A DNA stretch of 64,000 nucleotides from Candidatus Deferrimicrobiaceae bacterium (lineage in GTDB: Bacteria > Desulfobacterota > Deferrimicrobia > Deferrimicrobiales > Deferrimicrobiaceae): contig CAWBVY010000001.1 of NCBI GenBank assembly GCA_963792415.1, forward strand, positions 192,001 to 256,000. The letters run 5' to 3'. Positions within the stretch are counted from its first letter, which is position 1, and every line of letters starts with the position of its first letter. A program made the position numbers and the translations under genes. This document shows, in pieces, positions 633-18,903 of the stretch. The notes below the pieces were generated by a model. It was not told where the DNA came from. It saw nothing but the letters and a program-made list of their open reading frames with translations, and did no database searches.

Positions 633-829
633 TTCAGGCATGTTATTGCGTACGTAAAGGCGATCCCTTGGAAGGGATTGTTCCGGGAAAATTATTTCCC
701 ATTAAGGCTCTGCTTTTTCACGAATGACAACGACGGACCATATCATTCTTCTTTATAATGAACTACATGCATTCACACAGTCGATGGGTGCGAATATTGC
801 TGGAATGAACAGGATCGGGGGAGAGCGCG

Positions 830-1120: not shown

Positions 1121-1156
1121 TCTCCGCCCGTCGATCCGATCCCGCCCTCGGGCAGG

Positions 1157-1639: not shown

Positions 1640-1743
1640 CGTGCGCGATCCCCCTCTCTTCCCGGACCGTCCTGTTGCGATGCCCCTGGGTGCGATCCAT
1701 TGTATTATACGCGCGGAGGCGAAGACGGACGGGAGGGTTCCTC

Positions 1744-2562: not shown

Positions 2563-2580
2563 AGGGAGGTCGGAGGCAGT

Positions 2581-2985
2581 TTACTTCCTCCCCTTCTCCT
2601 GCAGGAATTCGCCGAGCGCCTTGTCGACTTTCCCGATGTGGTTGACCAGCCAGTCGCCCATGTAGCGGCCCATCTTGTCGGCCAGTTCGGGGGTGGCGCC
2701 CTTGTCGTCGTACTCGTCCCTCAGGTCGTAGAAGTCGTTGATGAACGCCACGTGCGCCCCCTTGTGGGAAGGGAACCCCGGGTAGGAGAGGCGGCGCATG
2801 TAGATCTCTTCCAGCCCGAAATGGTTGGTGACGTAGTCCTCGAGGTAGTCCAGAACCTTCACCAGGTCGTGCGCGGCGGGTTTCCCTTCCTCCCGCAACA
2901 GCGAGTTGATCGCGGCGAAAAGTTCCCGGTGCTGGGCGTCGATGGTGTCCACCCCCACCGACCATCGTTCCGTCCACTCGAACAA
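2581..2985 (-). CDS. Bacteriohemerythrin (single-domain hemerythrin)
   Basis: IDAQH, HFGLEE, HKGAH and NHIGKVD di-iron ligand pattern. Confidence 0.9.
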   Translation of the reverse strand: MFEWTERWSVGVDTIDAQHRELFAAINSLLREEGKPAAHDLVKVLDYLEDYVTNHFGLEEIYMRRLSYPGFPSHKGAHVAFINDFYDLRDEYDDKGATPELADKMGRYMGDWLVNHIGKVDKALGEFLQEKGRK

Positions 2986-2997
2986 GATCGCCTCCGG

Positions 2998-3222
2998 TTA
3001 TCCGGCCGCCGGAGAGGAGGGGTATCCCTCCTCCGCGGTCGCCTTCAACAGCATCTCCACGGTCGTCCTCGAGGGATCGCAGGCGACCACCGCGCGCGGA
3101 GGGGACAGGGTCACCTCGACCGCCTCCACCCCGGGTACCGCTCCGAGCGCTTTCTTCACCGCGGCGACGCAATGGCCGCATGTCATCCCCGTGATCGCCA
3201 GCGCCACATGTCCTCTCTCCAT
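2998..3222 (-). CDS. Heavy-metal-associated (HMA/CopZ-like) metal chaperone
   Basis: GMTCGHC motif in a 74-aa protein. Confidence 0.88.
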   Translation of the reverse strand: MERGHVALAITGMTCGHCVAAVKKALGAVPGVEAVEVTLSPPRAVVACDPSRTTVEMLLKATAEEGYPSSPAAG

Positions 3223-3290
3223 CGCCTCTCACCTTCCCTGTCCGCCGGTGATGTCCGGATATCCGGACATTATATAGTAGACTGCTGACG

Positions 3291-4784
3291 ATGATGGAGA
3301 ACGGGACGATACTTGTAACCGGGGCCACCGGCTACGTGGGAGCGCGCCTGGTGACCCGCCTGCTCGCGAAAGGATACCGGGTTCGCGCCACCGGCCGTTC
3401 CCTCGCCCGCCTGCGGAAGCGCCCCTGGGCGGACCATTCCGCCGTGGAACTCCTCCCGGCCGACGTGACCGACGCCGCGTCGATCGCGAAGGCGTGCGAG
3501 GGGTGCGCGGCGGCGTACTACCTCGTCCACTCCATGATGCCGGGGGAGGGGAAATTCGAGGAGGTGGACCGGGAAGCGGCGCGAAACATGGCGCGGGCCG
3601 CCGGGGAGGCAGGCCTTTCGCGGCTGATCTACCTGGGCGGACTGGGGGAGGAGAACCCGTCCCTGAGCCGCCACCTCCGTTCCCGCGCGGAGGTCGCGGA
3701 GATTCTCGCCGCGGGGAAGACCCCCGTCACGATCCTGCGCGCCGCCATGATCCTCGGGGCGGGCTCCGCATCCTTCGAAATCCTGCGCTACCTGGTGGAC
3801 CGTCTCCCCGTGATGATCACCCCGAAATGGGTGCACACCGAGTGCCAGCCGATCGGCATCCGGAACGTCCTCGACTACCTCGTCGGTTGCCTGGAGACGC
3901 CCGCCACGGCCGGCGGCACCTTCGACATCGGGGGCCCGGAGGTCGTCACCTACCGGGAGCTGATGCGCATCTATGCGGAGGAGGCCGGGCTTCCGTCCCG
4001 TCTCGTGATCCCGGTCCCGGTCCTGTCCCCCCGCCTTAGCTCCTACTGGATCCACCTCGTCACTCCCGTGCACGCGGAGGTCGCCCGGCCCCTGGCCGAG
4101 GGGCTTTCCAACCGTGTGGTCTGCCGGGACAACCGTATACTGGACCTGATCCCCGTGGAACGCTCCACATGCCGGGAGGCGATTCACGGGGCACGGGGGC
4201 CGAGGAACTTCCGGTTCCTGGAGGCGGAACAGCCCCCGGGGTGGGTCCCCTGGGAGACGTACCGGTACCCCGACGATCCGCCGTGGGCGGGGGGGACGTT
4301 CTACCGGGACACCCGACGGCTCTCCGTCCGCGCGACGCCGGCGGAGGTCTGGGAGCAGATCGAGGCCCTGGGCGGACAGAACGGCTGGTACAGCGCGGAC
4401 TGGCTCTGGTCCCTGCGCGGCACCCTGGACCGGCTGTGCGGCGGGATCGGCATGCGAAGGGGAAACCGGAAAGGGGAACCTCTCTCCCGCGGCGCGGAGG
4501 TCGACTTCTGGCGCGTGGTCTCGGTGACGCCGCGACGGGAGTTGCGGCTGCTGGCGGAGATGAAACTTCCGGGAGAGGGAGTTCTTTCCTTCCGGCTGCG
4601 GGAGACGGACCCCGGAACCACCCAGCTGACCCAGACCGCCCAGTTCCTTCCCCGCGGCCTTGGGGGGATCGTGTACTGGAGGCTCGTCGCCCCCTTCCAC
4701 CGGTTCGTCTTCCCCGGCCTCATCCGCGAGATCGCCCGGCGCACGGGGAAGCGGATCGTCTCCGGGCCGGAGCAGGTCCGATGA
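3291..4784 (+). CDS. Atypical SDR/NAD(P)-binding protein with C-terminal DUF2867 (YbjT-like)
   Basis: TGATGYVG, YYLVHSM, SASFEILRYL; C-terminal GGQNGWY, DFWRV and AEMKLPG. Confidence 0.88.
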   Translation: MMENGTILVTGATGYVGARLVTRLLAKGYRVRATGRSLARLRKRPWADHSAVELLPADVTDAASIAKACEGCAAAYYLVHSMMPGEGKFEEVDREAARNMARAAGEAGLSRLIYLGGLGEENPSLSRHLRSRAEVAEILAAGKTPVTILRAAMILGAGSASFEILRYLVDRLPVMITPKWVHTECQPIGIRNVLDYLVGCLETPATAGGTFDIGGPEVVTYRELMRIYAEEAGLPSRLVIPVPVLSPRLSSYWIHLVTPVHAEVARPLAEGLSNRVVCRDNRILDLIPVERSTCREAIHGARGPRNFRFLEAEQPPGWVPWETYRYPDDPPWAGGTFYRDTRRLSVRATPAEVWEQIEALGGQNGWYSADWLWSLRGTLDRLCGGIGMRRGNRKGEPLSRGAEVDFWRVVSVTPRRELRLLAEMKLPGEGVLSFRLRETDPGTTQLTQTAQFLPRGLGGIVYWRLVAPFHRFVFPGLIREIARRTGKRIVSGPEQVR

Positions 4785-4830
4785 TTGCTGTTTTCACAAC
4801 TCCATTCCTGGGATACGATATGGACCGGAA

Positions 4831-4845
4831 GGCACCCGGGGTGCC
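4831..4845 (+). promoter_or_regulatory. Palindrome GGCACC-CGG-GGTGCC, also fits a weak GG-N10-GC sigma54-like pattern
   Basis: Seen directly, 27 nt upstream of the GTG at 4872. It departs from the TGGCAC-N5-TTGC consensus. Confidence 0.2.
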
Positions 4846-4871
4846 CCTATAAGTCGGATTTGGGAGGCCGC

Positions 4872-6641
4872 GTGAGTTCGAATCCCCCCAGCATCTCTCC
4901 CCACGCACCCGAAAAGAACGGCTTGTTCCTCGACGACGGTTCCCGTGTCGCCGTGATCGGCGGCGGACCCGCGGGCTCCCTCTTCACCTATTTCCTCTTC
5001 GAGATGGCGGAGCGGATCGGGATGGAACTGGCCGTGGACATCTACGAACCCAGGGACTTCACGAAAAACGCCCCGAGCGGGTGCAACATGTGCGGGGGCA
5101 TCGTCTCCGAATCGCTCGTCCAGTTGCTGGCCACCGAGGGGATCAACCTCCCTTCCAGCGTCGTGCAGCGGGGGATCGACTCGTACGTCCTCCACATGGA
5201 CGTGGGGACCGTGCGGATCGAGCCGACGCGCCGGGAAAAACGGATCGCCGCCGTCTACCGCGGCGGGGGCCCGCGCGGAGTCGTCGAGTCCCGCTGGGAC
5301 AGCTTCGATGCGCACCTCCTCAAACTTGCGAAGGAGCGGGGGGCGCACGTTTATCAGGAACGCGTTGAGGGGATCGACCGGAACGGCGGGAAGCCGCGCA
5401 TCACGACGAAAAAGGGGACCTCCCCGGAATACGAGCTCCTCGTCGGCGCGGTGGGCGTGAACACGGGCGCCCTCAAACTCTTCGAAGAGATGGGCGCGGG
5501 CTATCGGGCTCCCGGGCTGACGAAGACGTACATCTGCGAGTTGTTTCTCGGAGAGAGGACGATCAAGACGTACTTCGGAAACGCGATGCACATGTTCCTC
5601 CTCAACCTCCCCCGCCTCGAATTCGCCGCGCTGATCCCGAAGGGGGATTACGTGACGATGGTGATGCTGGGCACCGGGATCGACAAATCCCTCGTCGATG
5701 CGTTTTTCTCGGCCCCGGAAGTGCGCAAGTGCTTCCCCTCCGACTGGTCCCCGCCGGCTGATTTCTGCCGCTGCTCCCCCGCCATCAACATCTCGGCGGC
5801 GGTCAAGCCGTTCGCCGACCGGATGGTGCTCATCGGCGACAGCGGCGTGAGCCGTCTCTACAAGGACGGGATCGGCGGGGCGTACCGGACCGCGAAGGCG
5901 GCCGCGAGAACGGCGGTGTTCGAAGGGGTGGCGGAGGAGGATTTCCGGAAAGGCTACCTCCCCGTCTGCCGGTCGCTCTCGGTGGACAACGGGATCGGGA
6001 AGGTCGTCTTCGGGATCACGACCCTGATCCAGAAAACGACCGTGCTCCGGAAGGGGCTGTTGCGGATGACCGCGGCGGAACAGGATGGAAGCCAGTGGAA
6101 ACCACGGATGAGCGACGTCCTGTGGGACACCTTCACGGGGAGCGCCCCGTACAAGGATGTCTTCCGCCGGTCGCTCCACCCCGTTTTTCTCGGACACCTT
6201 TTCTACGAAACGTTGACGGGAATGCTCCCCGCGGGCCGGGAGGGCGGGAAGAAGGAGGACAAGGTGCCATTCGGAAAGACGGGCGAACTGGGCAAGATCT
6301 ACAATTCGGGGGAAATCATCGTCCGGCAGGGGGACGCCGGCGAGTGCATGTACTTCATCCAGTCCGGCAACGTCGAAGTGATCCACGAGAGCGACGGAAA
6401 GGAAGTGAAGCTCGCCGAGCTGGGGCACGGGGAGTTCTTCGGGGAGATGGCCCTCTTCGAGAAGGGGGTCCGCTCCGCCACCGTCCGCCCGCTGGGCGAA
6501 GTGCGGGTCCTCTCCGTCGACAAGCGGCTGTTCCTCCGGAAGATCCACGAGGACCCTGCGCTGGCCTTCCGCATCATGCAGAAGATGTCCCGCCGGATCC
6601 GGGACCTCGACAAGGAACTGGGGAATCTGCGTTCGGAGTGA
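4872..6641 (+). CDS. FAD-dependent oxidoreductase (geranylgeranyl reductase-like) fused to a C-terminal cyclic-nucleotide-binding domain
   Basis: VAVIGGGPAG, CNMCGG and LIGDSG flavin motifs; C-terminal FFGEMAL...RSATV phosphate-binding cassette. GTG start after a GGAGG RBS. Confidence 0.85.
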   Translation: MSSNPPSISPHAPEKNGLFLDDGSRVAVIGGGPAGSLFTYFLFEMAERIGMELAVDIYEPRDFTKNAPSGCNMCGGIVSESLVQLLATEGINLPSSVVQRGIDSYVLHMDVGTVRIEPTRREKRIAAVYRGGGPRGVVESRWDSFDAHLLKLAKERGAHVYQERVEGIDRNGGKPRITTKKGTSPEYELLVGAVGVNTGALKLFEEMGAGYRAPGLTKTYICELFLGERTIKTYFGNAMHMFLLNLPRLEFAALIPKGDYVTMVMLGTGIDKSLVDAFFSAPEVRKCFPSDWSPPADFCRCSPAINISAAVKPFADRMVLIGDSGVSRLYKDGIGGAYRTAKAAARTAVFEGVAEEDFRKGYLPVCRSLSVDNGIGKVVFGITTLIQKTTVLRKGLLRMTAAEQDGSQWKPRMSDVLWDTFTGSAPYKDVFRRSLHPVFLGHLFYETLTGMLPAGREGGKKEDKVPFGKTGELGKIYNSGEIIVRQGDAGECMYFIQSGNVEVIHESDGKEVKLAELGHGEFFGEMALFEKGVRSATVRPLGEVRVLSVDKRLFLRKIHEDPALAFRIMQKMSRRIRDLDKELGNLRSE

Positions 6642-6683
6642 TCCACCCGCTCGAGCGACGGACAGGAAAGGAGGGTCTCGAAG

Positions 6684-7451
6684 TTGAGATTAAAGGTATT
6701 GGGCGCCGCCGGTTCCGAGGTCCCCGGGCACAACTGCCCGGCGTTCCTGATCGACGAGAAGATCCTCCTGGACGCGGGGACGATCGCCCTGTCCCTGAAC
6801 ATCCGCGAGGAGCACAGCCTGGGGTGGATCCTCCTCACGCACGCCCACCTCGACCACATCAAGGGGATCCCGTTCCTGCTCGACAACCTGGTGACCCGCA
6901 GCACCGGGAACACCATCACCGTCGCCAGCGGGAAGGACGTCCTGAACGACCTGAAGAAGAACATCTTCAACGACAGGATCTGGCCCGACTTCTCCCGGAT
7001 CCCGACGCGCGCACACCCGGTGCTGCGGTACAAGAACATCGGTACCACGCGGCCCTTCCAGATCGACGGGTACCGGATCACGATGGAGAAGGTCCACCAC
7101 ACCGTCCCGGCGTACGGGTACATCGTAGAGAAGCCGGGGAACAAGGCAATCGCCTACACGGGCGACACGGGGCCGACCGACCGCTTCTGGGAGAGGATGG
7201 CCGCCCACGACGTGAAGTACCTCATCACGGAGACCTCCTTCCCCAACCGGCTGGAGAAGCTCGCCCTGACGACCGGCCACCTGACCCCCTCCCTGCTTAA
7301 GGGGGAGATCGCGAAGATGTCCCCGCCGCCGGAGAAGATCTTCATCATGCACCTGAAGCCGCAGTTCCTGAATGAGATCGAGATGGAGATCCGGGCGCTC
7401 GATCACGACAACATCGAGTTCCTGAAGGACGGAGAAGTGATCCTGGCCTAG
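6684..7451 (+). CDS. Class II 3',5'-cyclic-nucleotide phosphodiesterase (metallo-beta-lactamase fold)
   Basis: THAHLDH, NIFNDRIWPDF, HHTVP, YTGDTG, GHLTP and MHLKP motifs; TTG start after an AGGAGG RBS. Confidence 0.88.
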   Translation: MRLKVLGAAGSEVPGHNCPAFLIDEKILLDAGTIALSLNIREEHSLGWILLTHAHLDHIKGIPFLLDNLVTRSTGNTITVASGKDVLNDLKKNIFNDRIWPDFSRIPTRAHPVLRYKNIGTTRPFQIDGYRITMEKVHHTVPAYGYIVEKPGNKAIAYTGDTGPTDRFWERMAAHDVKYLITETSFPNRLEKLALTTGHLTPSLLKGEIAKMSPPPEKIFIMHLKPQFLNEIEMEIRALDHDNIEFLKDGEVILA

Positions 7452-7458
7452 CCCGCCG

Positions 7459-8943
7459 TCAGGAGATCCCGAAGAATCTCATCAACTTCCGGAGGAGCGC
7501 GTCGTGGAGGGACGACGCTTCGTCGGCAACCTTGCGGACCTGCTGCACGGTCAGGATCTTCTGGAGGCGGTCCCCCAGCGCGGAACTCAAGCCCTCCAGG
7601 ACGGACGGGTGCGAACGGATGATCGGAGCGATGGCACCCTTCGAAATCTCGGCGAGCCAGACCTCGTCGACCGCGGCGACCGTCGCGCGGCGCTTCTCCC
7701 CGGTGAGGAGCGACATCTCCCCGAAGAAATCGCCCCCGGACAACGATCCGACCGTCTGCCCGTCCACGGAAACCTCGAGGTTCCCGCACAGGTTGATGAA
7801 GAGGGAGTCCCCCTCCTCGCCCTGGCGCACGACGATCTCCCTGTTTCCGTAGACGCGCAGCCGGACGTGCGGCAAGAGGGCGTCCAGTTCCTCCTCGCCC
7901 AGGGGGGAAAGGATCTCGGCCCGGCGGAGGCTCCCGCGGATCGCGGCGGCGTCCATCCGGAACGGCGGGGCCGGCTCCTTCCGCACGATCTCCCGGTGCG
8001 GGTACGGGAACGTCTGCCCCTCGCGCGTGACGGCGTACCAGACGCGCCGCAGGACCTTGTCGCGGGCCTCGAGGAGGTTCGCGTACTCCTCGAGGTAGAA
8101 GCGCAGGTTGTAGTGGATGCCGCTGTCCATGAACCCGTCGACCTTCACCCAGGGCGCCGGCGTCGACAGGATCCCCGGCTCGTCCCGGAGGGCGTCGAGC
8201 AGGATCGCCTTCGCCCGTTCGGGGGGGAACGCGTAATCGAGGAGGACCGTGAGGGTGACCGGCGGAGGCGCACCCGGACGGCTCCCGATGGAGTGCACCA
8301 CGTTCTGCGTCATGTAAAGGTTCGGGACGTGGACCAGGTGACCCTCCAGGGTCCGGACCGTGGAGTACCGGAACCCCACGTTGACGATCTCGCCCGTGAT
8401 GTCCTTTTCCTTGATCCAGACCCACGTGCCGCGCCGGAACGCTTCGTCGGCCTGGATCTGGAAGCCGGAGACGATGTTGGCCAGCGAGGTCTGCATCGCG
8501 AACGCGAGGGCGGCGGTGAGCACCGTGGTCGTCGTGAGGATCGACGTCATGTTGATTTCGAAGATCACGCGCAGGGCGGTCGCGCCGAAAAACAGGTACA
8601 CGCCCAGCAGGAGAATGTCCCGGAGGAACGACGGGACATTCCCCTTCATCCGGCGGTGAAGATAGGTGTCCACGAGCAGGTAGGCGACCAGGTTCGCCCA
8701 GCAGAAGAGCATGATCAGCCCGTGAATCTCCAGTATGTAGGGGGTGTATTCCACCGGGACCTTGAAGGGTCCCACGACGTACGCAAGAAAGATCCCGAAA
8801 AGGGCCGCCTTGATCGTCAACCAGACCTTGGACATGGAAAGGTCCATCCGCGTCACGGCGCGGACGGCGGCGATCAGGAGGAAGAACGCGAGGGGGACCA
8901 GCAGCAGGAGGGTCTCGTTGGACAGTAGGAATTTGAACGTCAT
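7459..8943 (-). CDS. MscS-family mechanosensitive channel with C-terminal cNMP-binding domain
   Basis: N-terminal TM helices, AFAMQTSLANIVSG, GEIVNVGFRYSTVRT, VPN, FPYPHR, then FFGEMSLLTGEKRRATV. Start taken at ATG 8943. Confidence 0.88.
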   Translation of the reverse strand: MTFKFLLSNETLLLLVPLAFFLLIAAVRAVTRMDLSMSKVWLTIKAALFGIFLAYVVGPFKVPVEYTPYILEIHGLIMLFCWANLVAYLLVDTYLHRRMKGNVPSFLRDILLLGVYLFFGATALRVIFEINMTSILTTTTVLTAALAFAMQTSLANIVSGFQIQADEAFRRGTWVWIKEKDITGEIVNVGFRYSTVRTLEGHLVHVPNLYMTQNVVHSIGSRPGAPPPVTLTVLLDYAFPPERAKAILLDALRDEPGILSTPAPWVKVDGFMDSGIHYNLRFYLEEYANLLEARDKVLRRVWYAVTREGQTFPYPHREIVRKEPAPPFRMDAAAIRGSLRRAEILSPLGEEELDALLPHVRLRVYGNREIVVRQGEEGDSLFINLCGNLEVSVDGQTVGSLSGGDFFGEMSLLTGEKRRATVAAVDEVWLAEISKGAIAPIIRSHPSVLEGLSSALGDRLQKILTVQQVRKVADEASSLHDALLRKLMRFFGIS

Positions 8944-9009
8944 GGCCCGATCCGCTTCTCCAGGGGTGGTGCAGGAATTGTCCGTCATCCGGATGGAGGA
9001 AAGCAAGGC

Positions 9010-9057
9010 CACGACAACAAAGAGTTCCCGATGGACGGCGAGGTGATCCTGATCTAG
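9010..9057 (+). repeat. Diverged direct-repeat copy of the last 16 codons of the phosphodiesterase gene (7404-7451)
   Basis: Encodes HDNKEFPMDGEVILI* versus HDNIEFLKDGEVILA*; 40/48 nt identical by manual alignment. Confidence 0.8.
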
Positions 9058-9185
9058 GGAGGTTGTATCGCCGGAGTCGCAATGTCCGGCGCAGCGCACT
9101 TGAATGACTCGTCAAACAGGTTGATCGCACCGGTCGAAATGAATCCGTACCGTTGTGGCAGATGTCAGCTGACGTCGGCAAACGA

Positions 9186-9225
9186 ATCCCGGTACGCCGC
9201 CATCCATTCCGCGGCGTACCGGGAT
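9186..9225 (-). terminator. Strong hairpin, probable terminator of the cyclase-barrel-secreted protein operon
   Basis: Perfect 15-bp stem ATCCCGGTACGCCGC / GCGGCGTACCGGGAT with a 10-nt loop, about 40 nt after the stop at 9267. The U-tail is weak (TCGTTT). Confidence 0.6.
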
Positions 9226-9266
9226 CGGTGTCCCGCTCGTGTTGACAAAGAGAAATTCTTATAATG

Positions 9267-9986
9267 CTACCATGGGACCTCGCATTGATCATCAAACTGT
9301 GCATTACACGTTGGATATGTCTTTGAATACTCCCACTGCAAATCAGTTGTACAAGTATAAGAACTCCCTACACCAATTGGAGCCGACCCGAGGTCACAAG
9401 AACCCTTAATGTGTACCACCTCTTCTGCGGTATAATCCCCTGTTGGAGAACCATCGGGATTGAAAGCCGTAGTGTAACATAGCCCGTAATCATTTGGGTC
9501 AAGAACAGGGCATGTCAAGTTAATATCTTCATACGCTTGTATATACACATCAAACGTCTTGACAACAATACCATAAGCCGTCCAATTCGGATTTACGCAA
9601 TACGAATTCGGATCACCAAGATTGGCAAGGAGGTCTTCATCGGTAAAAGTTATAAATGAATCCCATCGTCCATTTCTTGTTGGCGCATCAGGCGAAGCTT
9701 GACTTCCTGTCACAGTTGTTGGGTAAATAAAAGGATTCCCGACCCCTCCGTCATTGCCTCCAGGGTTTTTACATAAAACCATCACCTCGTTCGGGAACAA
9801 TGTTACCTTGACACTCGTAGGTCTTAGATCTTTATTCGCTATTCCCCTCCAACCTGAATAGATCACTACGGTATTTTGGTATGCAGCCCATCCACTGGAT
9901 GAGGCCGGCCACGCATGGGCGTCCGTGCCTCCAAGCGCCATGATGCCGATACAGAGTGTCCCGATAATCAATAATCTCTTCAACAT
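9267..9986 (-). CDS. Secreted Cys-rich hypothetical protein (low GC)
   Basis: Sec signal peptide ending AHA, 8 Cys in the mature part, AGAGGAG RBS. A sampled line (9481-9540) is 42% GC. Confidence 0.8.
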   Translation of the reverse strand: MLKRLLIIGTLCIGIMALGGTDAHAWPASSSGWAAYQNTVVIYSGWRGIANKDLRPTSVKVTLFPNEVMVLCKNPGGNDGGVGNPFIYPTTVTGSQASPDAPTRNGRWDSFITFTDEDLLANLGDPNSYCVNPNWTAYGIVVKTFDVYIQAYEDINLTCPVLDPNDYGLCYTTAFNPDGSPTGDYTAEEVVHIKGSCDLGSAPIGVGSSYTCTTDLQWEYSKTYPTCNAQFDDQCEVPW

Positions 9987-10105
9987 TGTCTTCTCCTCTC
10001 GTCGTTGTATTCAACCGGGAATGATTGTCAGAATCACTCCCAACGGCGCACTCCATTTCCATCGTGACCATCCCCTCCTTCCCTAATAATAAGGATCCTT
10101 CGGTA

Positions 10106-13100
10106 TCACGGAAGCGCCAACGTCACCTTGCAATAGAAATTTCTGCCGGGCTGTATCCTCGGGTTGTTCACGTCCGTGTCGGCGTAGTCGAATTGCTCGT
10201 CAAAAAGATTCGTGGCCCCCACGGAAACGAACCCGTAGCGCTTGGGCAGACGGTAGCTGATGGCGGCATCGACGACCCAGAAGGTGTCGCTGCCGGAATC
10301 GAAGCTAAAACCGTTCTTATCCTGGAATACGCCCTCCTGATCATAATAGGTCGCGTTCATGCCTGCGCTCCACCCGGAGGGGTGGAAGAAGCTGATCCCT
10401 ATCGGTAAGGATTGGGTTTTCACGTCCTGTATCCCCGCGTTGTATTGATCACCCCTCTCGAATTTCTCGTATACGTACCCCCCCCGGAGAGCCAGCATCG
10501 GATGAGGAGCCCAGTTCAGGTAGAGACGGCCGATGTGTTCCGTCCAGTCGGCATTCTGGAAAACAAAGGATGCCGAACCTTCCGGTTGGGTTAGGTAAGG
10601 CACTTGCATGTCCCTGTAGAAATATTCCGCTCCTCCGAACAGGCTTTTAGAAAATTTCTGGTCGACAGCGCCACCGTAGACCCACGCCTCCGTCGCATTA
10701 AAATCGTCGAAAAACTGATTGAAGCCGGCCACCTGGGTCGGCTCGAGGGTCTGGTCCGTAACCAGCGTCCTCTTCATCGTTCGGAACACGGCGCCACGAA
10801 GAGTCGTTTGAGTAGGAAGGTCCCATGTAATGCCGAGTTTCGGATTGAACTGATTTTTTTCCACATCCCGGTCGTCCCGATTGTTCTCGTCACTCTTGAA
10901 GAAGTCGCCGCTGGCGCCAGCGGTGATCGTCACGGTCGGAACGAGCTTGATGTAGGCGTAGAGATACACGTTGATATGGGAAATATCCAGAGCGATGCTG
11001 TCGGTGCTCTCGAATAGAACCAAAGGAGGAACTTCCCCCGGCCAGGTGACATTTTCACTGAACCCGAGGTCCTGATTTATCTTGAAGTATCCCGCGCCGA
11101 CGACGGTGTTGATGTAATTGGACCGGTAAATGTGCTGCAACTCCCCGGTGTAAGCCTTTTCATCGGTAGTGTTACCCAAAGCATCCCGTATATCCGGGGG
11201 AGGGGCCCCTATGATTGCGGGGTCGAAAAACAAGGTGTAGGCCACGCTGGCATCACGCTTGGTGTACGAAAAGTTCCCGATGAGATTGGACTGCGGTGAA
11301 AAGGACTGAAGGAATCCCAGGCGGAAATGATCTCGGTTTTCCTCCTGATTAAGTTCTTTGGAAATGTTGTCTTTCCAGAAAAGCAGTTCGGTATCCCCTC
11401 TCTTGTTATCCCTGTATCGGTATTCAGCCTGGATGCTCGTCCGGGGAAAGAGCTGGTACTGGGCATAGACGTCAAAGATGTTGTCCCTGAGGCCGTTGTT
11501 TTCGCGGACACCGTCGGTTTTAAAGTAGTTCTGGCCCATACTGAAGGAAGCCTTGTTGTAGATTCCGGAGACAACGACCTCCTCACCCAATGTGTCGTTG
11601 TTCCCGGCAATTCCACTTGCCTGGAGCGCTATCCGGTTCCGGTTGAACAATGGGTTGAATTCGTTGAAGGAAAGGGACGACGGGCCCTCCGCGCTCGAGA
11701 TGAACAGATTGCTCTCCGCCAGACGAGGTTGAATGGGGGTGATGTTGATGGGCTGAAGAAGCTGGGACACGAGCAACTCGCTCACCCTTGCGATCTGGTG
11801 GCGCGGCAAAGCGGCGTAGCTGTCGGCCAGGAACCGGTGGCCGGAAAAGTCGGACGGGTCCGTATTGACCGATTTCCAGCCTTCCACCAGCGCGCGCTGC
11901 TGGAAGCCCAGGTCCGAGTAGATCCGGGCGACGCTCGCGCTGCGTGCCGCAAGATCCGAATCGAGCAGGAGACGTGAGCGGTAGACGGCCCGGTTGTCGT
12001 TCAGCTCGATGGACTTTTCCAGGTCCTGCAATGCTTCCACGGGCCGGTTCGTGGTCTGCTTCTCTATCGCCTCGTAGAAATACGGCGTGGGGTCCGACGG
12101 ATCCAGGCTCTTGGCCATCCCGTACTGGCCGGTCGCCAGTTTGTCGCGCTTCTCTTCGTAGTAGGCCTTCCCAAGATAACTGCGTATCAGGGAATTGTTC
12201 GGATCGAGGCTCATGGCGATCTCGATCTCCCTTCTCCCCTCCTCCAGGTGGCCTTCACGGATCATCGCCAGGCCCAGGCCCAGCCGCGGGAGCGGATCCG
12301 AATCATCGAGCTTGATCGCTTTTTCGAAAGCTCCCTTCGCTTCCACTGTTTCGACCCGGGTCAGGTGGGAGAACCCCAGGACCGTCTGCGTCCTCGAGAG
12401 GTCGGGCCGCAGCGCCGCCGCCTTCTTCGCCGAATCCAGGGACATGTCGAGGTTGCCGAACGATTGCTGCAACTCGGCCAGCCGGGCCCAGGCGAGGGCG
12501 TTTTCGGGCGCCAGCTTCACGGCTTCCTCCAGGCTGCCCAGCGCTCCCGGCAGGTCGAATTGGGCCTGCTGCGCATAGGAAAGGGCGATCCGCGCCGTCG
12601 CGGATTTCGGGTCCGACTCCACCGCCTTCCGGGCAAGCTCGAGGGCCTTCCCCTTCTCGTTCTGCGTGACGGCGATCATCGCCTGGAGCGCGAAGGCGTC
12701 GCTGTTCTTCGGGTCGAGTTTCTGCGCCTTGTCGATGTCCGCCGTTGCCTCGTCGACCCGGCCGACGGTCAGCAGCTGCGACGCGCGTGCGGTGTAGAAG
12801 CGCGGATCGTTTCCGTCTTCCTTCAGATCCTGGGGAGGGGCATCGAGGACGGGCGGATAGTACAGCGCCCACTGGACCGCATCCCGCGGGCGCACGACGA
12901 CCCGGTACACCGGGGCATTCCCCGCCTCGGCCACCGCCGACTGCCCCGTGGCGACCGGGAGGCCGCCCGCCGCGTTCGATGCCAGCACCTTCCCCTCGAA
13001 GACGGTCAGGTCGGTCTTCCCTTCCTCGACCCGGAGGAAGAACTCCGTCCCTTCCACGCCGGCGTTCACGGTCGCGGTGCGCACCTCGAGGTTCCGCGTG

Positions 13101-13465
13101 ACGCGGCTGAAGAAGAGCGCGGCCCCGCCGATCATGTCGACCAGGGAGGTCCGCTCGTCTTTCATGCCCCCCAGAGTGACAGTGGTGTTCTGGTCGAGAC
13201 GGAGGACGGGGTGGTTGTACAGCGCGATGTCCGCCCGGCTTTTCCTGTCCGTCCGGACCGTGTCCCCCGGGCAGTACGTCTCGTTGAGTTTCGCCGGCTC
13301 CCACAGGGCCTGCCCTGCCCCCTTGACTTCCACGACCCCCTGGACCGAGACCACCTTTCCGGCCCATTTCTCGCACGTAGCCGCGTGTGCGATGCCGCTG
13401 CACAACATCATCGCGATGGCTGCACATGCCAGAAGACTCACAACGTACGGGTGCAGTCGTTTCAT
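10106..13465 (-). CDS. FecR-domain / TPR / TonB-dependent-receptor-like beta-barrel outer-membrane protein
   Basis: Signal peptide; FecR-like region (GDTVRT, LRLDQNT, AGVEGTEF, VFEGKV); multiple TPRs; C-terminal amphipathic strands (NPKLGITW, DAAISYRL, GATNLFD). Confidence 0.85.
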   Translation of the reverse strand: MKRLHPYVVSLLACAAIAMMLCSGIAHAATCEKWAGKVVSVQGVVEVKGAGQALWEPAKLNETYCPGDTVRTDRKSRADIALYNHPVLRLDQNTTVTLGGMKDERTSLVDMIGGAALFFSRVTRNLEVRTATVNAGVEGTEFFLRVEEGKTDLTVFEGKVLASNAAGGLPVATGQSAVAEAGNAPVYRVVVRPRDAVQWALYYPPVLDAPPQDLKEDGNDPRFYTARASQLLTVGRVDEATADIDKAQKLDPKNSDAFALQAMIAVTQNEKGKALELARKAVESDPKSATARIALSYAQQAQFDLPGALGSLEEAVKLAPENALAWARLAELQQSFGNLDMSLDSAKKAAALRPDLSRTQTVLGFSHLTRVETVEAKGAFEKAIKLDDSDPLPRLGLGLAMIREGHLEEGRREIEIAMSLDPNNSLIRSYLGKAYYEEKRDKLATGQYGMAKSLDPSDPTPYFYEAIEKQTTNRPVEALQDLEKSIELNDNRAVYRSRLLLDSDLAARSASVARIYSDLGFQQRALVEGWKSVNTDPSDFSGHRFLADSYAALPRHQIARVSELLVSQLLQPINITPIQPRLAESNLFISSAEGPSSLSFNEFNPLFNRNRIALQASGIAGNNDTLGEEVVVSGIYNKASFSMGQNYFKTDGVRENNGLRDNIFDVYAQYQLFPRTSIQAEYRYRDNKRGDTELLFWKDNISKELNQEENRDHFRLGFLQSFSPQSNLIGNFSYTKRDASVAYTLFFDPAIIGAPPPDIRDALGNTTDEKAYTGELQHIYRSNYINTVVGAGYFKINQDLGFSENVTWPGEVPPLVLFESTDSIALDISHINVYLYAYIKLVPTVTITAGASGDFFKSDENNRDDRDVEKNQFNPKLGITWDLPTQTTLRGAVFRTMKRTLVTDQTLEPTQVAGFNQFFDDFNATEAWVYGGAVDQKFSKSLFGGAEYFYRDMQVPYLTQPEGSASFVFQNADWTEHIGRLYLNWAPHPMLALRGGYVYEKFERGDQYNAGIQDVKTQSLPIGISFFHPSGWSAGMNATYYDQEGVFQDKNGFSFDSGSDTFWVVDAAISYRLPKRYGFVSVGATNLFDEQFDYADTDVNNPRIQPGRNFYCKVTLALP

Positions 13466-13522
13466 TGTCGGCTCCCTCCCCCTTTATCGTTTATCCTTGC
13501 CCTCCGGTTCTCAACCGTTTGG

Positions 13523-15781
13523 CTACTTCTTGTCCATGAGAACCACCCCGTCCCACGGTTCCGCGGGGGGGGTGGTGTTGTACACCTCGCACAGGCTTAA
13601 GTAATAACGTGAAGGCTCGTCCTCTCCCAGCGCTTCCAAAGCCCAGCGGAATTTTTCCTTTGCTTCCTCCCAGGATTTCTGCTTGAAGGCGGCAAGAGCC
13701 TCGGCGAATACCCGGCACCCCTCGCGCTGTTTCCCGTCCGCCTCTTCCAGGCGGCAGATCAGCTCGTGGATCGCGATCGGCATGCTCTTCCCTTTCAACC
13801 GGAACGACCCGAGCTCCCTCGTCAACAGGCCTTCCAGCTGGTCTATCACCTCGGAGGACACCAGGACGCGCGTTCCCAGGTGCTTGTTCATCCCCTCGAT
13901 CCGTGACGCCGTGTTGACGATGTCCCCCATGACGGAGTGCTGGTAATGGTCCCCGCCGCCGATGTTCCCGAGGAAGATGTCCCCGTAATGCAGGCCGATC
14001 CGGGTGTTGAGGCGGTGCGGATCGGATGGCCCGTACAGCCGGTGCACGGCCCGGTTGATGTCGATCGCCGCGAGGCACGCCTTGTCCCGAAGGGCCGCGT
14101 CGGGGGTCGCCGAGACCCAGATCGCCAGCATGGAGTCCCCGGCGAGGTTCGATACGACCCCGCCGTGCTCCTTCACCGGCCGGAACATCGTCTCGTAGTA
14201 CCGGTTCATGAACGCGCCGAGCTCCTTGGGGTCCAGGGTCTCCGACAACGTCGTGTAATGCTCCGCGTCCGTGAACAGGCAGACGCCGTAGACGGACTCG
14301 CTGACGGCGCCGAGCTCCCCGAGGTTCTCCACCAGCTGGTCGACGACGTTCTTGGGGAGGTAATGCTCGAAGGCCTTCCGGACCTTCTCCTGCTCCTTCT
14401 TCGTGTCGAGGTAGTTCCAGATCACCCCTCCGAAGAATGCCAGCGGAGCCTGGAAAAAGAGCGGGACCGCCACGGGGTACCAGAGGTTGGCCGTCTTGAA
14501 CTGAAACCACGCGAGGGCGAGATAGAGGCCGCTCAAGCCCACAATGCCCAGCGCCGCGATCCCGATATGGAAATACCTGCCGAGGAACCCCATGACCACG
14601 CCCCAGAGGACAACGATGAAGACCAGGGGAAGCAGCCCGAGCGGCTTCACCGATGTATCGTCCAGGATGTTGGAGAATGCGGTGGCGGAGATCTCCACCC
14701 CGCCGATGAAGATTCCGTTCGCCTGGGAGAACACCGTGTAGAAGCTGTCCTTCCGCTCCGCCAGCATCGCCTCCGACAGCCCCACGAAGACGGCCTTCTC
14801 CTTCAGGTCGATCTTCCGGTCCCCCGCCGCACCGTCGCGGATCTGGAGCGCCTGGTGATACGGAATCGTCGTGATTGTGCGAGGCCTGCCGTAGTAGTTG
14901 ATGAACCGGTTGTTCGACCCCTCGTACACGCGGATCAGCGCCTCGACCAGCCGTTGCCTGCCCGCATCGCCGGCGGGCGCCTTCGAACGTTCGAGCTCGC
15001 GCCGCATTCTCTCCGCGATCAACGGATCGGCCAGGAACACCTCCCGGATCTTTTTCATCAGGTCCCTGACGGTTCCCGTGGCGATGGCCGCCGACATGTC
15101 GCGGGGGAACTTCCTCGCCTGCGCCGGGCTCGCCTTCTCGAGCAGGCGGATGAAATCCCCGTAGGCCGTCGCCCCGTAGATCTGGAGCATCACCATCGGA
15201 ACGGAGGGAGAGTCCCCTGCGCCCGGCTCGAACGTGAAGAACTGGCTCACCCGGAAAGGGATCCGGGGAAGCGTGAACGGCGCCGTGGCCGCGGCGGCAT
15301 CGGAGAAGAGCTCGATCGGCGGCACCACCTTGACGACGTTGTGGCTCGAGGACTCGGAAGACCCGTCCACGTCCGGCAGAAGGATGTCCTTGGTCCGGAT
15401 CGGCTCGGTGAGGACGACGTTTCGCGCCTTTTTCATCGCGTTCGCAAACGCGATGTCGTCCTTCGCCACCCGCGGCTCGATGAAATGGAGGTCGAAGGAT
15501 ACGACCCTGGCGCCTTCCCGGGCCAGGATCTCCGTCAGGCGCGCATGGAGAGAGCGGGGCCACTTGTCGGGGTTGTCCGGGATGCCAAGCTGCTCGGACG
15601 ATTCCCGGTCAATGCTGATGACGACGGCTTCCGGAGGAGCCTGGCGCGCTCCCCTCAACCTGAACAGCAGGCCGAGACCGGTGTTTTCCTCGAGATCGAG
15701 CGCGAATCGGAAAGGGCTTGCGACCAGACCCGCGACCCCGACGAGGAAACCGAGGATGACTGCTTTCAACAAGCGGGACAT
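13523..15781 (-). CDS. CHASE2-domain class III adenylate/guanylate cyclase
   Basis: CHASE2 motifs (VISID, WPRSLHARL, FDLHF, GVEISA), three TM helices, catalytic LFTD, AGDSMLA, RIGLHYG and GDIVNTASRIE; C-terminal WDGV tail. Confidence 0.92.
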   Translation of the reverse strand: MSRLLKAVILGFLVGVAGLVASPFRFALDLEENTGLGLLFRLRGARQAPPEAVVISIDRESSEQLGIPDNPDKWPRSLHARLTEILAREGARVVSFDLHFIEPRVAKDDIAFANAMKKARNVVLTEPIRTKDILLPDVDGSSESSSHNVVKVVPPIELFSDAAAATAPFTLPRIPFRVSQFFTFEPGAGDSPSVPMVMLQIYGATAYGDFIRLLEKASPAQARKFPRDMSAAIATGTVRDLMKKIREVFLADPLIAERMRRELERSKAPAGDAGRQRLVEALIRVYEGSNNRFINYYGRPRTITTIPYHQALQIRDGAAGDRKIDLKEKAVFVGLSEAMLAERKDSFYTVFSQANGIFIGGVEISATAFSNILDDTSVKPLGLLPLVFIVVLWGVVMGFLGRYFHIGIAALGIVGLSGLYLALAWFQFKTANLWYPVAVPLFFQAPLAFFGGVIWNYLDTKKEQEKVRKAFEHYLPKNVVDQLVENLGELGAVSESVYGVCLFTDAEHYTTLSETLDPKELGAFMNRYYETMFRPVKEHGGVVSNLAGDSMLAIWVSATPDAALRDKACLAAIDINRAVHRLYGPSDPHRLNTRIGLHYGDIFLGNIGGGDHYQHSVMGDIVNTASRIEGMNKHLGTRVLVSSEVIDQLEGLLTRELGSFRLKGKSMPIAIHELICRLEEADGKQREGCRVFAEALAAFKQKSWEEAKEKFRWALEALGEDEPSRYYLSLCEVYNTTPPAEPWDGVVLMDKK

Positions 15782-15900
15782 CGTAACACATCATGAAATA
15801 TTGTGCGCATCGATTGCACCCCGGATAACAACAACGAATAATCCATATATTCAATATAGTAGCCTTTCATAAAATAGATAAAATTGAGCCAAACATAATA

Positions 15901-15917
15901 AGCAATTGCCGCGCCAA
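15901..15917 (-). promoter_or_regulatory. sigma54 (-24/-12) promoter upstream of the cyclase operon
   Basis: Minus strand reads TTGGCGCGGCAATTGCT (GG-N10-GC with TGGC and TTGC), about 120 nt upstream of the cyclase ATG in an AT-rich region. Confidence 0.65.
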
Positions 15918-16355
15918 CACGGAGAGCTCGCTTAACTCATTAAAAATAAACGATTTTACTTGGCATCACCAGAAGTGGAAGGAGGGCTCCACCTCGAAGT
16001 GGCTAAAATATTACCGAAACGATGCAAATCAATCCCGACGTGGCCGAGTGTAAAACGGTGAGGGCTTGGGATCAACCCCGCGAACCCAACCAGAAACCCA
16101 AACGAATCCCTTTCCACCCGCGGGTCATCAAAGTACTTCAGGAAACCTTATCGTGAGGCATCGAGCACCCTCGGTAACAACACGAATAATCATATTATTC
16201 AATAAGTTATTATTGATAAAAATTGTCCGCGTTTGAGGATGACATCGTCTAAACGACTCCATCAAGAGTTTTGGATATATAAACATAAATATTGTTAAAT
16301 TTAAAACGCAATCTCGGATGCTTAGGAAACCTAATTTCAAACTGTTTGTCAACAA

Positions 16356-16439
16356 TTAATTTGACTCGGTAAGCTGGAGGATCGTGCAGAGTTCCTCGAT
16401 GCAGATGACACGGAGAAGATCAGAATACCCTGTCTTCAT
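16356..16439 (-). pseudogene. Possible truncated excisionase-like HTH fragment (27 aa)
   Basis: GGAAGAGG RBS followed by MKTGYSDLLRVICIEELCTILQLTESN*. It resembles the start of HTH_17 proteins and ends where the AT-rich tract begins. Confidence 0.2.
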
Positions 16440-16674
16440 CCTCTTCCCCCGGGGTGTCCAATCGGAGGTTTGCACGGGCTAATCCGTGTGAAAGATTCCA
16501 GCAGGATGTCGGGCAGTCTGCGTTCGAGGGCACCATCCGGTCGGATCAGGAATTCATCGGAGCTGTGGAATTCCACGACGACACGCTTCTTTCACCACGC
16601 CGGACGTGGGAGAATATTCCTGTACGCGGATAACGCCGGGGGAGGTCCCCGCAGGATTCGCTGGAGGCGCGCCG

Positions 16675-17766
16675 ATGCCGGAACTTTCGAAGGAGCGGCT
16701 GGAGCGGTACCTGACCACGTTGTTCCATGCGCCGGTGGCAATCACCGCGCTGGTCCCGCTCCGTGAATCGAAGGCGTCGGGCGCGGCCAAGGAGTACGGG
16801 TACGGCCACCCGGTGAAGGTCGAGTTCACCGTCGGCGCTTCGCGGCGCGCCGCCGTGCTCGAAACGACGAGCCCCGGTCCCTTCGGGCACGAGCACATGG
16901 CGGACCGCGCCCGGATGATGCTGTGGGACCACGGGGCGTACAACGCCCTCCCGAAGCATGTCCGCTCCCTCGACGTGGGCGCGTTCGACCGCGAGGGGAA
17001 CCTCCGCTCCGTCGCGGACGCCGAGGAGTTCTTCCTCCTGGTCGAGCACGTCGAAGGAGCGGCATACATCCGGGACATCGCGCGGCTCCAGGAGGGGGGG
17101 GCGCTGCGCGACCTGGACCTCGCGAGAGCGGACGCCCTGTGCGACTACCTCGCCGGGATCCACTCCGTCCGGGGGCCGGACCCGGGACTCTACGTCCGCA
17201 GGATCCGCGAGCTGCTGGGGGACGGCGAGTGCATCATGGGCGTGTGCGACGGCTATCCCCTCCCCCGCGGGTTCCTCACCGCCCCGCTGCTCGAGGAGAT
17301 CGAGCGGCGTTGCGTGGCCTGGCGCTGGCGCCTGAAAGACCGCGCCGACCGGCTGCGCCAGGTGCACGGGGACTACCACCCCTTCAACATCCTCTTCCGG
17401 GAAGGGACCGACTTCACCGTGCTGGACCGGTCGCGCGGCGAGTGGGGGGAACCCGCGGACGACGTGACCGCCCTCACGGGGAACTACCTGTTCGCGTCCC
17501 TGCAGGCGACGGGCCGGCTCGAAGGTCCCTTCGAAACGTTGTTCCGGCGGTTCTGGGACCGGTACATCGAGCGGACGGGGGACGGGGGGATCCTCGAGAC
17601 CGCCGCGCCGTTCTTCGCGTTTCGCTGCCTCGTCATGGCTTCCCCCGTCTGGTACCCGTCCCTCGACGAGTCGGTTCGCCGGAAACTCTTCTCCTTCCTC
17701 CTCTCGATCCTGGACGCCCCGCGCTTCGAGCCGGAGAAGGTCAACGGGTGGCTCGATGCCCTCTGA
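16675..17766 (+). CDS. Aminoglycoside phosphotransferase / choline kinase-like family kinase
   Basis: HGDYHPFNILF Brenner motif and VLDRSRGEWGEPADD; GGAGG RBS before ATG 16675. Confidence 0.8.
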   Translation: MPELSKERLERYLTTLFHAPVAITALVPLRESKASGAAKEYGYGHPVKVEFTVGASRRAAVLETTSPGPFGHEHMADRARMMLWDHGAYNALPKHVRSLDVGAFDREGNLRSVADAEEFFLLVEHVEGAAYIRDIARLQEGGALRDLDLARADALCDYLAGIHSVRGPDPGLYVRRIRELLGDGECIMGVCDGYPLPRGFLTAPLLEEIERRCVAWRWRLKDRADRLRQVHGDYHPFNILFREGTDFTVLDRSRGEWGEPADDVTALTGNYLFASLQATGRLEGPFETLFRRFWDRYIERTGDGGILETAAPFFAFRCLVMASPVWYPSLDESVRRKLFSFLLSILDAPRFEPEKVNGWLDAL

Positions 17767-18325
17767 TCGCGCGCCCGCCTTCGCGGTCTGGCTCACGGGA
17801 CTGCCCGCTTCGGGAAAGTCGACCGTCGCGCGGGCGCTCGAGGCGGAACTGGCGGGGAAGGGGATCCGGGCGGCGGTCCTCGAGTCCGACGCCCTTCGCC
17901 GCGAGATCGCACCGAACGCGGGCTACGGAGAGTCGGAGCGGGACGCGTTTTACGCCACCGTGGCGTACCTCGCGAGGATGCTCGCCCTGCACGGGGTCCC
18001 CGTGATCGTCGACGCGACGGCGAACCGCAGGGCGCACCGTGACCGCGCCCGGGAGGCGATCCCCTGTTTCCTCGAGGTCCACGTCCGCTGCCCGCTCGCG
18101 GTGTGCCAGGCGCGGGACCCGAAGGGGATCTACCGGCGCGGGGCGGAAGGAACGGCGAAAGACGTGCCGGGCGTGTCGGCGCCGTACGAACCGCCGTTGC
18201 TGCCGGAGGTGGTCGTCGACGGAGAAAGAGACGATCCCGCTGCCGCCGCCCGTCGCATCGTGTCGGCGCTCGAGGAGAAGGGGTTCCTCGCGCGCTGTCC
18301 GGGGGACGCGACGGGAACCGAGTGA
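17756..18325 (+). CDS. Adenylyl-sulfate kinase-like P-loop kinase
   Basis: VWLTGLPASGKST, RDPKGIY and PGVSAPYEPP motifs; overlaps the upstream gene's stop. Confidence 0.8.
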   Translation: MPSDRAPAFAVWLTGLPASGKSTVARALEAELAGKGIRAAVLESDALRREIAPNAGYGESERDAFYATVAYLARMLALHGVPVIVDATANRRAHRDRAREAIPCFLEVHVRCPLAVCQARDPKGIYRRGAEGTAKDVPGVSAPYEPPLLPEVVVDGERDDPAAAARRIVSALEEKGFLARCPGDATGTE

Positions 18326-18326
18326 G

Positions 18327-18869: not shown

Positions 18870-18903
18870 GGGGCACATTATACGATCAAATCGGACCGAT
18901 TGG

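Follow-up and report, generated by a model that had tools for sequence, protein, structure and literature searches.

An NsrA/CyaK-type sensor pair beside candidate direct cyclic-nucleotide effectors in a Candidatus Deferrimicrobiaceae bacterium

What becomes of a cyclic-nucleotide signal when its cyclase is encoded beside a putative outer-membrane sensor and beside a channel and a flavoenzyme that could bind the nucleotide directly, and is such a locus a system of its own kind? The question was raised by positions 4872-15917 of a 64,000-nucleotide stretch of DNA from Candidatus Deferrimicrobiaceae bacterium (assembly GCA_963792415.1, contig CAWBVY010000001.1, positions 192,001-256,000), hereafter the window. 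A preliminary description, made from the sequence, had proposed a self-contained and undescribed trans-envelope signalling locus. Our analysis indicated that the locus is probably, though by no means certainly, an NsrA/CyaK-type trans-envelope sensory module wired to local, non-transcriptional proteins with cyclic-nucleotide-binding (cNMP) domains, hereafter readers. The proposal of a sensor of this type with local direct effectors was upheld in part, whereas neither a separate kind of system nor a self-contained one was borne out; the class of system is already known, and variation in the readers belongs to its nature.

Pfam scans of the long open reading frames (ORFs), together with hydropathy, placed all six genes listed for the interval at the positions first given for them. 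On the minus strand the order is cyclase, FecR-TPR-barrel protein, secreted protein and MscS-cNMP channel. The plus-strand genes for an NmrA/DUF2867 protein, a flavin adenine dinucleotide (FAD) oxidoreductase with a cNMP domain (FADox-cNMP) and a phosphodiesterase converge on this group.

The sensor pair and its homologues

The pair consists of a 752-residue class III nucleotidyl cyclase (13523-15781, minus strand; Pfam CHASE2 E=1.2e-26, Guanylate_cyc E=1.3e-12) and, after a gap of 57 nt, an NsrA-like outer-membrane protein of 1119 residues (10106-13465, minus strand), referred to below as the barrel protein, with matches to FecR (E=2.8e-14), many TPR models and, weakly, an outer-membrane beta-barrel (E=7.5e-4). 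When plasmids were searched by tblastn, the barrel protein matched pSymB of Sinorhizobium meliloti, on which a 1190-residue 'FecR domain-containing protein' with the same FecR, TPR and weak-barrel layout in Pfam is encoded immediately upstream of 'adenylate cyclase CyaK'. In BLASTP the two FecR proteins aligned with E=9e-23 across the FecR and TPR part and 5e-6 across the barrel, and the window cyclase aligned with CyaK at E=4e-25. The resemblance to the S. meliloti pair that had been pointed out earlier is one of homology and of shared architecture. We take the pSymB ORF at cyaK to be NsrA, judging by its position and the reported place of the NsrA barrel. Divergent from this FecR-TPR-barrel gene on pSymB lies a DUF5706 gene (L098, 5169-5714) that matches Pfam PycTM at E=9.4e-12. 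According to the available text of two reports, NsrA is an outer-membrane receptor that, with CHASE2 cyclases, turns a protein signal into cyclic AMP (cAMP), which is read by Clr (PMC7529298, PMC13001267); its barrel is placed at residues 600-1200 (PMC7529298).

The barrel protein begins with a signal peptide, seen by hydropathy as an N-terminal signal-like segment, followed by the FecR domain (68-160), a TPR array (~210-600) and the C-terminal barrel (~610-1119). A full-length AlphaFold2 model contained 22 barrel strands, with a mean predicted local distance difference test score (pLDDT) of 57, ~80 in the TPR array and ~60-80 in the barrel. Foldseek aligned ~560-600 columns of the modelled barrel to the TonB-dependent transporters FptA, FpvA, OprC and FecA (E ~1e-16); no Plug family was among the Pfam matches of the protein. 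A plug-less transporter-type barrel with a FecR domain and a small partner that tracks barrel type would fit a receptor complex, and would also fit a translocon with its substrate. Complex prediction for the periplasmic CHASE2 part and the FecR domain gave a score of 0.00 in a run made without controls, which counts neither for nor against binding.

Hydropathy and Pfam divided the cyclase into a first membrane segment (residues 4-22), a periplasmic CHASE2 part (~23-380), three membrane segments (381-455) and a cytoplasmic cyclase domain (~480-700); ~360 residues thus lie in the periplasm between one N-terminal and three central segments. The protein was aligned with 24 cyclases of clade A (encoded upstream of the barrel gene, like the window cyclase), 11 of clade B, CyaK and the genome's other cyclases, and separately with the solved Beggiatoa photoactivated cyclase. 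Class III cyclases use two metal-binding Asp residues and a transition-state Asn and Arg. In both alignments the window cyclase retained both metal Asp as well as the Asn and Arg of the GDxVNxAxR stretch.

The cyclases encoded downstream of the barrel gene formed a separate clade, clade B (L055, L056, L059, L063, L067, L072, L074, L079, L087, L088 and L090), with Glu and Gly at the base-specifying positions, a pair that we take to be guanylate-cyclase-like. Judging from these residues, sensor pairs of this family may differ in the nucleotide that they make.

The pair is widespread. At least 5975 full-length relatives of the barrel protein were found at E<=1e-3 among 8000 candidates scored, and a scan of one genome per species yielded at least 673 confirmed loci, from which 70 distinct loci in many phyla were kept; the best named locus among the matches listed was a Candidatus Deferrimicrobium metagenome-assembled genome with 70% identity. 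At close range the barrel gene is patchy, occurring in 5 of the 24 other genus genomes sampled. Six-frame ORFs of the 70 loci were searched with the domains of the window, and neighbours were counted at the 37 whose flanks both reached 6 kb or more. A CHASE2 gene was present at 34 of these 37, and at 30 CHASE2 and cyclase domains shared one gene, split over two frames in one case.

Readers at the locus and their linkage to the pair

The MscS-like channel gene (7459-8988, minus strand) has a longest frame of 7459-9099; homologue lengths of 508-510 residues put the likely start at ~8988. Its product has four hydrophobic segments and, in Pfam, the beta and C-terminal domains of MscS and, at its own C terminus, a cNMP-binding domain (E=1.3e-16), which is the order of domains in bCNG channels (cyclic nucleotide-gated channels of bacteria). 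FADox-cNMP (4785-6641, plus strand), whose start codon may lie anywhere from 4785 to ~4925, joins an FAD/NAD(P)-type oxidoreductase with a GxGxxG motif to a C-terminal cNMP domain (E=7.9e-24). Both cNMP domains retain the Gly-Glu...Arg-x-Ala phosphate-binding motif, FFGEMSLLTGEKRRATV in the channel and FFGEMALFEKGVRSATV in FADox-cNMP. The N-terminal part of FADox-cNMP scored below the cut-offs of DAO (25.1 bits against 27.9) and of an NCBIfam geranylgeranyl-reductase family (43.6 bits) and matched no PDB sequence at E<=0.01; the Atlas neighbours of the protein are uncharacterised NAD(P)/FAD oxidoreductases. The 255-residue phosphodiesterase with a metallo-beta-lactamase fold (6684-7451, plus strand) is of class II type: it matched PF02112 PDEase_II at 40.4 bits (cut-off 23.7) over 58 aligned residues and carries THAHLDH. 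The His-x-His-Leu-Asp-His motif is the signature of the class II family. The best solved relative of the window protein was yeast 3',5'-cyclic-nucleotide phosphodiesterase 1 (4ojv, E=6.9e-6), and its residues 1-230 aligned to positions 1-227 of the 253-position NCBIfam equivalog profile for cyclic nucleotide-degrading phosphodiesterase, NF041851, at 48.3 bits, below the cut-off of 400.

Orthologues of FADox-cNMP with 85-91% identity were found in six genus genomes. In G014 it lies with the NmrA, phosphodiesterase, MscS-cNMP and barrel genes, the secreted-protein gene being absent; in G042 with the phosphodiesterase, secreted, barrel and cyclase genes, MscS being absent; and in G021 the barrel gene and cyclase stand beside FADox-cNMP and phosphodiesterase in a rearranged order. 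Metagenome contig L118 contains barrel, secreted, MscS-cNMP, phosphodiesterase and FADox-cNMP genes, and L120 contains barrel, secreted and MscS genes. Since the set recurs in relatives, the neighbourhood is not due to chance, and linkage of FADox-cNMP and phosphodiesterase to the pair that persists through rearrangement suggests selection for genes that work together. The co-occurrence of the six families, put forward as a check on the earlier proposal, was therefore found in part: the pair is widespread, but the exact set of the window recurs in close relatives only.

Further afield, the readers differ. The FADox part was found at 2 of the 37 fully flanked loci, and an MscS homologue at none of them. 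Pfam searches of 33 neighbouring cNMP, phosphodiesterase and FADox ORFs revealed CRP-type regulators (6 loci), cNMP-sigma54 activators with 4Fe-4S motifs, a cNMP-Ser/Thr kinase, transporters (SulP-STAS-cNMP and a cNMP-Na/sulfate symporter), glutaminase-STAS-cNMP proteins (3 loci), and cNMP-GAF, STAS-cNMP, cyclase-cNMP and single-domain proteins. As a rule the sensor pair is constant and the reader variable; non-transcriptional readers are common and not special to the window.

The genome (2.84 Mb, 11 contigs; G000) was searched except for 72 kb that the searches left uncovered. No HTH_Crp gene was found in the locus with Pfam, and the one clear CRP/FNR-type protein in the covered part of the genome (C4:705893-706570) does not have the Gly-Glu...Arg-Ser/Thr-Ala motif. 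The earlier remark that no CRP/Clr gene belongs to the locus agrees with this, and the absence of a CRP output is plausible on these sequence grounds. The genome also encodes a patatin/NTE-type cNMP phospholipase with an intact Gly-Glu...Arg-Ser-Ala motif (G000:C6:260654-262561), a further non-transcriptional reader, and at least three more class III cyclase loci (on C7, on C8 and a second CHASE2 pair on C1); the locus is accordingly not self-contained. The second pair (G000:C1:35283-43350; L112 5283-13350) comprises a CHASE2 cyclase of ~757-797 residues and a FecR-TPR-barrel protein of 1187 residues and is inserted, with a sigma54 activator, between ruvC and ruvA-ruvB. The N-terminal 296 residues of the activator had no Pfam match at E<=1. 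It may serve as a transcriptional output for the paralogous sensor.

Just outside the interval first described, the gene for an NmrA-like NAD(P)-binding protein with DUF2867 (3291-4784, plus strand; Pfam) ends one base ahead of the FADox-cNMP frame, and the two may be cotranscribed. The same arrangement, with the NmrA gene directly upstream, was seen in G014, in G005 and on contigs C2 and C3 of the present assembly.

Exchange of barrel and secreted protein

The assembly holds three versions of the locus, on C1 (the window), C2 (20.5 kb; 1-20463) and C3 (19.7 kb; 1-19733), the latter two corresponding to window positions ~1-15800. C1 and C2 share 99.7% identity from NmrA to MscS and 98-100% over most of the cyclase gene, whereas identity along the barrel gene sinks from ~97% to ~50-65%; by domain it is 97% in FecR, 87% in TPR and 50% in the barrel. 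The secreted-protein gene is missing from C2. The variable cassette thus spans 9062-12400 and comprises the barrel-coding half of the NsrA-like gene and the gene for the secreted protein. The G+C content of the window, ~63-69% elsewhere, drops to 48-55% at 9-12 kb. Many metagenome relatives split in the same way, with FecR at 90% identity or more and the barrel at either 83-91% or ~50%. Barrel and secreted gene have been swapped as a cassette among the three versions, an exchange that looked new to us. Contigs from public sequencing runs placed the stretch in sediment, estuary and wetland metagenomes; for this reason C1, C2 and C3 are more likely co-assembled strain variants than three copies per cell.

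At both ends C2 carries ~1.8 kb of unique flanking sequence, and its cyclase gene is broken into two frames (695 and 337 residues); C3, with many frame breaks, looks like a low-quality or minor-variant contig. In run X2 the summed depth was lower at 9.2-11.4 kb, and an RNA library gave a 3.7 kb contig over 5467-9007; neither was used as evidence.

The secreted protein (239 residues; 9267-9986, minus strand) was recognized by hydropathy and sequence, from its N-terminal hydrophobic signal-like segment and eight Cys residues past the signal peptide. It matched no Pfam or NCBIfam family. A word-based search gave 11 relatives, and an iterated profile, run over every ORF at the 70 loci, settled on 17 ORFs from 16 loci, with the motifs CxNxGGN, CxNPNW and a C-terminal CTL...YxC. 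All 17 ORFs lie on the strand of the barrel gene and directly after it. With the secreted protein as query, six metagenome loci were retrieved, and in all four that had upstream DNA the barrel gene was directly upstream. Among 1.84 billion sequences searched, the profile found 638 cluster representatives at E<=1e-3, of which 265 reached E<=1e-10; none of the 28 representatives scanned had a Pfam match above threshold, and 400 other genomes of the phylum gave no match at E<=1e-6. AlphaFold modelled the protein as a beta-sandwich (mean pLDDT 74). Foldseek returned nothing for the model at E<=1e-3, and the best VIA-align Z score, 6.8 to FN3- and Ig-like sandwiches, is inside the stated background of that tool; as modelled, it is a beta-sandwich with no specific solved relative. 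In the available text of the literature on CHASE2, FecR and NsrA, figures and supplements aside, a small gene downstream of the barrel gene is not mentioned. The protein belongs to an unnamed family that looked new.

A FastTree tree was built from 61 barrel domains. Hits had to cover at least 430 of the 519 query positions; duplicates (L102, L109), the frameshifted C3 barrel, partial sequences (L099, L105, L107) and copies (L110-L112) were left out. One clade of 40 barrels (support 97) contained all 17 members of the secreted family and 11 of the 13 other signal-bearing, Cys-rich downstream ORFs; of the 56 loci at which 900 nt or more of downstream DNA was present, 17 had the family (L088 being assigned to it by hand), 13 another Cys-rich ORF and 26 neither. 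The C1 barrel falls within this clade and the C2 barrel outside it. Because relatives share labels, the clustering alone is no proof of co-evolution, and more weight attaches to the contrast between C1 and C2, whose chassis is otherwise nearly identical.

Upstream of the cyclase gene is an AT-rich leader with two imperfect direct repeats of ~75 nt (15785-16222, minus strand; copies at 15785-15875 and 16130-16222), the proximal of which stands where the similarity of C1 and C2 ends. A consensus scan located the sigma54-like -24/-12 motif TGGCGCGGCAATTGCT at 15901-15916 on the minus strand, ~120 nt before the cyclase ATG, with one mismatch to TGGCAC-N5-TTGCW and both GG and GC retained. The motif claimed earlier is thus present, but conservation does not speak for it as a promoter: of 24 related loci, 1 had such a site ahead of its cyclase gene (background 0.027 sites per 380 nt), and the C2 version and the paralogue had none. 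Sites with at most two mismatches numbered 10 in the window against 10.9 expected from shuffles, and the motif alone is therefore not above chance. Strong sigma54 activators number at least 21 in the genome, and no RpoN DNA-binding or core-binding domain was found outside the uncovered 72 kb; the RpoN gene probably lies in unassembled or otherwise uncovered DNA. A sigma54 site at 15901-15916 is possible, without support from conservation. The only perfect match to the consensus in the window is at 63147-63162 (minus strand). Scans for sigma70 promoters and terminators gave 2 and 12 sites, not exceeding shuffled sequence, and Rfam had no match in window positions 3000-18000 at E<=0.1. A second protein with a FecR domain (FecR plus DUF6600, 544 residues; 20652-22286, minus strand) is encoded ~5 kb beyond the cyclase gene.

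Proposed pathway, alternatives and known systems

From gene content and homology we infer the following pathway, including its ligand, its nucleotide, its physical contacts and its effects on the effectors. The outer-membrane barrel protein would perceive an external, probably macromolecular, cue, and in barrels of this type the small secreted beta-sandwich protein would probably join it in perception. The periplasmic part of the barrel protein, presumably through FecR, would hand the signal on to CHASE2 in the inner-membrane cyclase, and the cyclase would make a 3',5'-cyclic nucleotide. Binding of this nucleotide to the cNMP domains of the bCNG-type channel and of the FAD oxidoreductase could directly change ion flux and a redox reaction, and the class II-type phosphodiesterase would reset the signal.

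Several observations weigh against this pathway. The window cyclase has Asn in alignment with the adenine-specifying Lys (part of KFIGD in the solved cyclase and also Lys in CyaK) and Ser, rather than Asp or Thr, at the partner position, and both positions are variable across clade A. With that Lys replaced, the cyclic nucleotide made is not predictable from sequence, and given such non-canonical residues the product, and even robust activity, are unproven. Asn reportedly occupies the corresponding position in the active mycobacterial cyclase Rv1900c. The full-length model of the barrel protein is of low confidence, with pLDDT below 50 in the FecR part. The two gene groups are convergent and hence not one operon, and the additional cyclases and reader of the genome make cross-talk possible. 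At the 37 fully flanked loci, 17 had at least one cNMP-domain ORF and 5 a phosphodiesterase, and MscS-cNMP stood beside the pair at none of the 70 genome loci. In G002, FADox-cNMP and phosphodiesterase lie ~137 kb from the sensor pair, and in G005, an 81% complete genome, no pair was found in the 18 kb covered.

Such observations could also mean that two independent units happen to be neighbours: a resident cNMP-responsive set (NmrA, FADox-cNMP, phosphodiesterase, with or without MscS-cNMP) that answers to any cyclase of the genome, and a patchy, laterally moving sensor island made up of the cyclase, barrel and secreted genes. We regard this as unlikely. It would account for the different distributions, with the barrel gene in 5 of 24 other genus genomes and FADox-cNMP (E<=1e-30) in 14 of 27, for the separation in G002 and the missing sensor in G005, for a G+C content of 48-55% over 9-12 kb against ~65% around it, and for the second pair between ruvC and ruvA, which has a sigma54 activator instead; against it stand the adjacency of both sets in all three versions in G000, in G014, in G042, in another order in G021 and in L118, and a linkage whose survival of rearrangement suggests selection. 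A reading in which the barrel and secreted proteins work chiefly as a pair for transport or surface display, a process that the cyclase would report on or regulate without sensing a cue from outside, seems to us very unlikely. Exporters that combine TPR and barrel and have neighbouring substrates are known in Slam, PgaA and BcsC, and the pair could be a translocon of this kind whose substrate is encoded next to it, or a TonB-dependent-type pore that lacks a plug of its own and has a separate one; the match of the model to 22-strand TonB-dependent transporters, the lack of a Plug family in the Pfam results and the co-variation of secreted gene and barrel type would all suit it. The FecR domain and the near-constant pairing with CHASE2 (34 of 37 loci) point instead to signalling, 26 of 56 loci do without a small downstream gene, and the S. 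meliloti homologue is reported, in the available text, as a signal receptor (PMC7529298).

Less probable again, and in our view remote, is envelope-surveillance defence, in which attack by a phage, bacteriocin or predator at the variable receptor would raise a cyclic nucleotide that opens the channel, in the manner of Pycsar or CBASS. PADLOC gave matches at the domain level only: the cyclase scored 71.7 bits against the PycC model PDLC00734, and the cNMP domains matched the cNMP parts of Pycsar TIR effectors. The non-canonical specificity residues, the hypervariable barrel cassette and the PycTM-domain gene beside the S. meliloti homologue would also be in keeping with defence, but no PADLOC system architecture was found, the locus includes a resetting phosphodiesterase and a metabolic flavoenzyme, and the same pair stands beside ordinary regulators in many genomes.

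The NsrA/CyaK-type module with local readers is thus the reading we prefer. A bolder version of it, which we put forward as speculation and consider unlikely, is that barrel and Cys-rich partner form an exchangeable surface-recognition cassette on a constant FecR/TPR/CHASE2 chassis, by which co-existing strains would sense different macromolecular cues (kin, prey, phage or bacteriocin) and convert them without transcription into bCNG ion flux and a redox switch. If true, this would provide the first physiological input pathway for bCNG channels and define a three-part receptor for the NsrA family. In the literature found, NsrA/CyaK is the experimentally studied case of signalling from the outer membrane to CHASE2, and its periplasm-crossing step is unexplained. 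The pair is widespread in sediment bacteria, where it behaves like a module with very different cNMP readers, and one large barrel clade brings a third component, the unnamed secreted family that follows barrel type. We consider three subjects worth following: the secreted partner family, the exchange of barrel plus partner, and a candidate input pathway for a bCNG channel.

Compared with known systems, the locus shares its core with NsrA, CyaK/CyaD1/CyaD2 and Clr of S. meliloti, namely a FecR (~66-160)-TPR-barrel protein of ~1100-1200 residues beside a CHASE2 cyclase; the homologues are distant, with only ~26% identity. The cyclase gene precedes the barrel gene here and follows it in S. meliloti, the specificity position holds Asn here and Lys in CyaK, and a small secreted gene follows the barrel gene here, with none annotated on pSymB. 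The output is Clr in S. meliloti, whereas the present locus, which has no CRP-type output, has a channel and a flavoenzyme as readers, plus a phosphodiesterase. In Campylobacterota all adenylate cyclases carry CHASE2, and a cluster of CHASE2 cyclase, phosphodiesterase, FecR outer-membrane protein and TPR protein is described in the available text of Mo et al. (mBio 2022, PMC9239204); FecR and TPR are separate proteins there, and that text mentions no local reader or small secreted protein. The grouping of receptor, writer and eraser is therefore already in print as a genomic observation, and with non-transcriptional readers common near the pair, the claim of a separate, undescribed system does not hold. 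Ferric-citrate signalling by FecA/FecR likewise combines a TonB-dependent-type 22-strand barrel with a periplasmic FecR-family domain; here the barrel, of this type in a low-confidence model, and the FecR domain are in one polypeptide, no Plug is listed, there is no sigma/anti-sigma pair, and the output is a cyclase. The two-gene architecture of cyclase and effector by which PADLOC recognizes Pycsar is absent, the likeness being at the level of domains. For bCNG channels, the physiological role and the part of cyclic nucleotides in gating are described as not understood in the available text of PMC13591265 (citing Caldwell 2010 and Malcolm 2012). In the channel of the window the domains come in the bCNG order, with cNMP_binding after the MscS beta and C-terminal domains. 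The locus adds a candidate writer, the cyclase, and a candidate eraser, the phosphodiesterase, which make the input of such a poorly explored channel testable.

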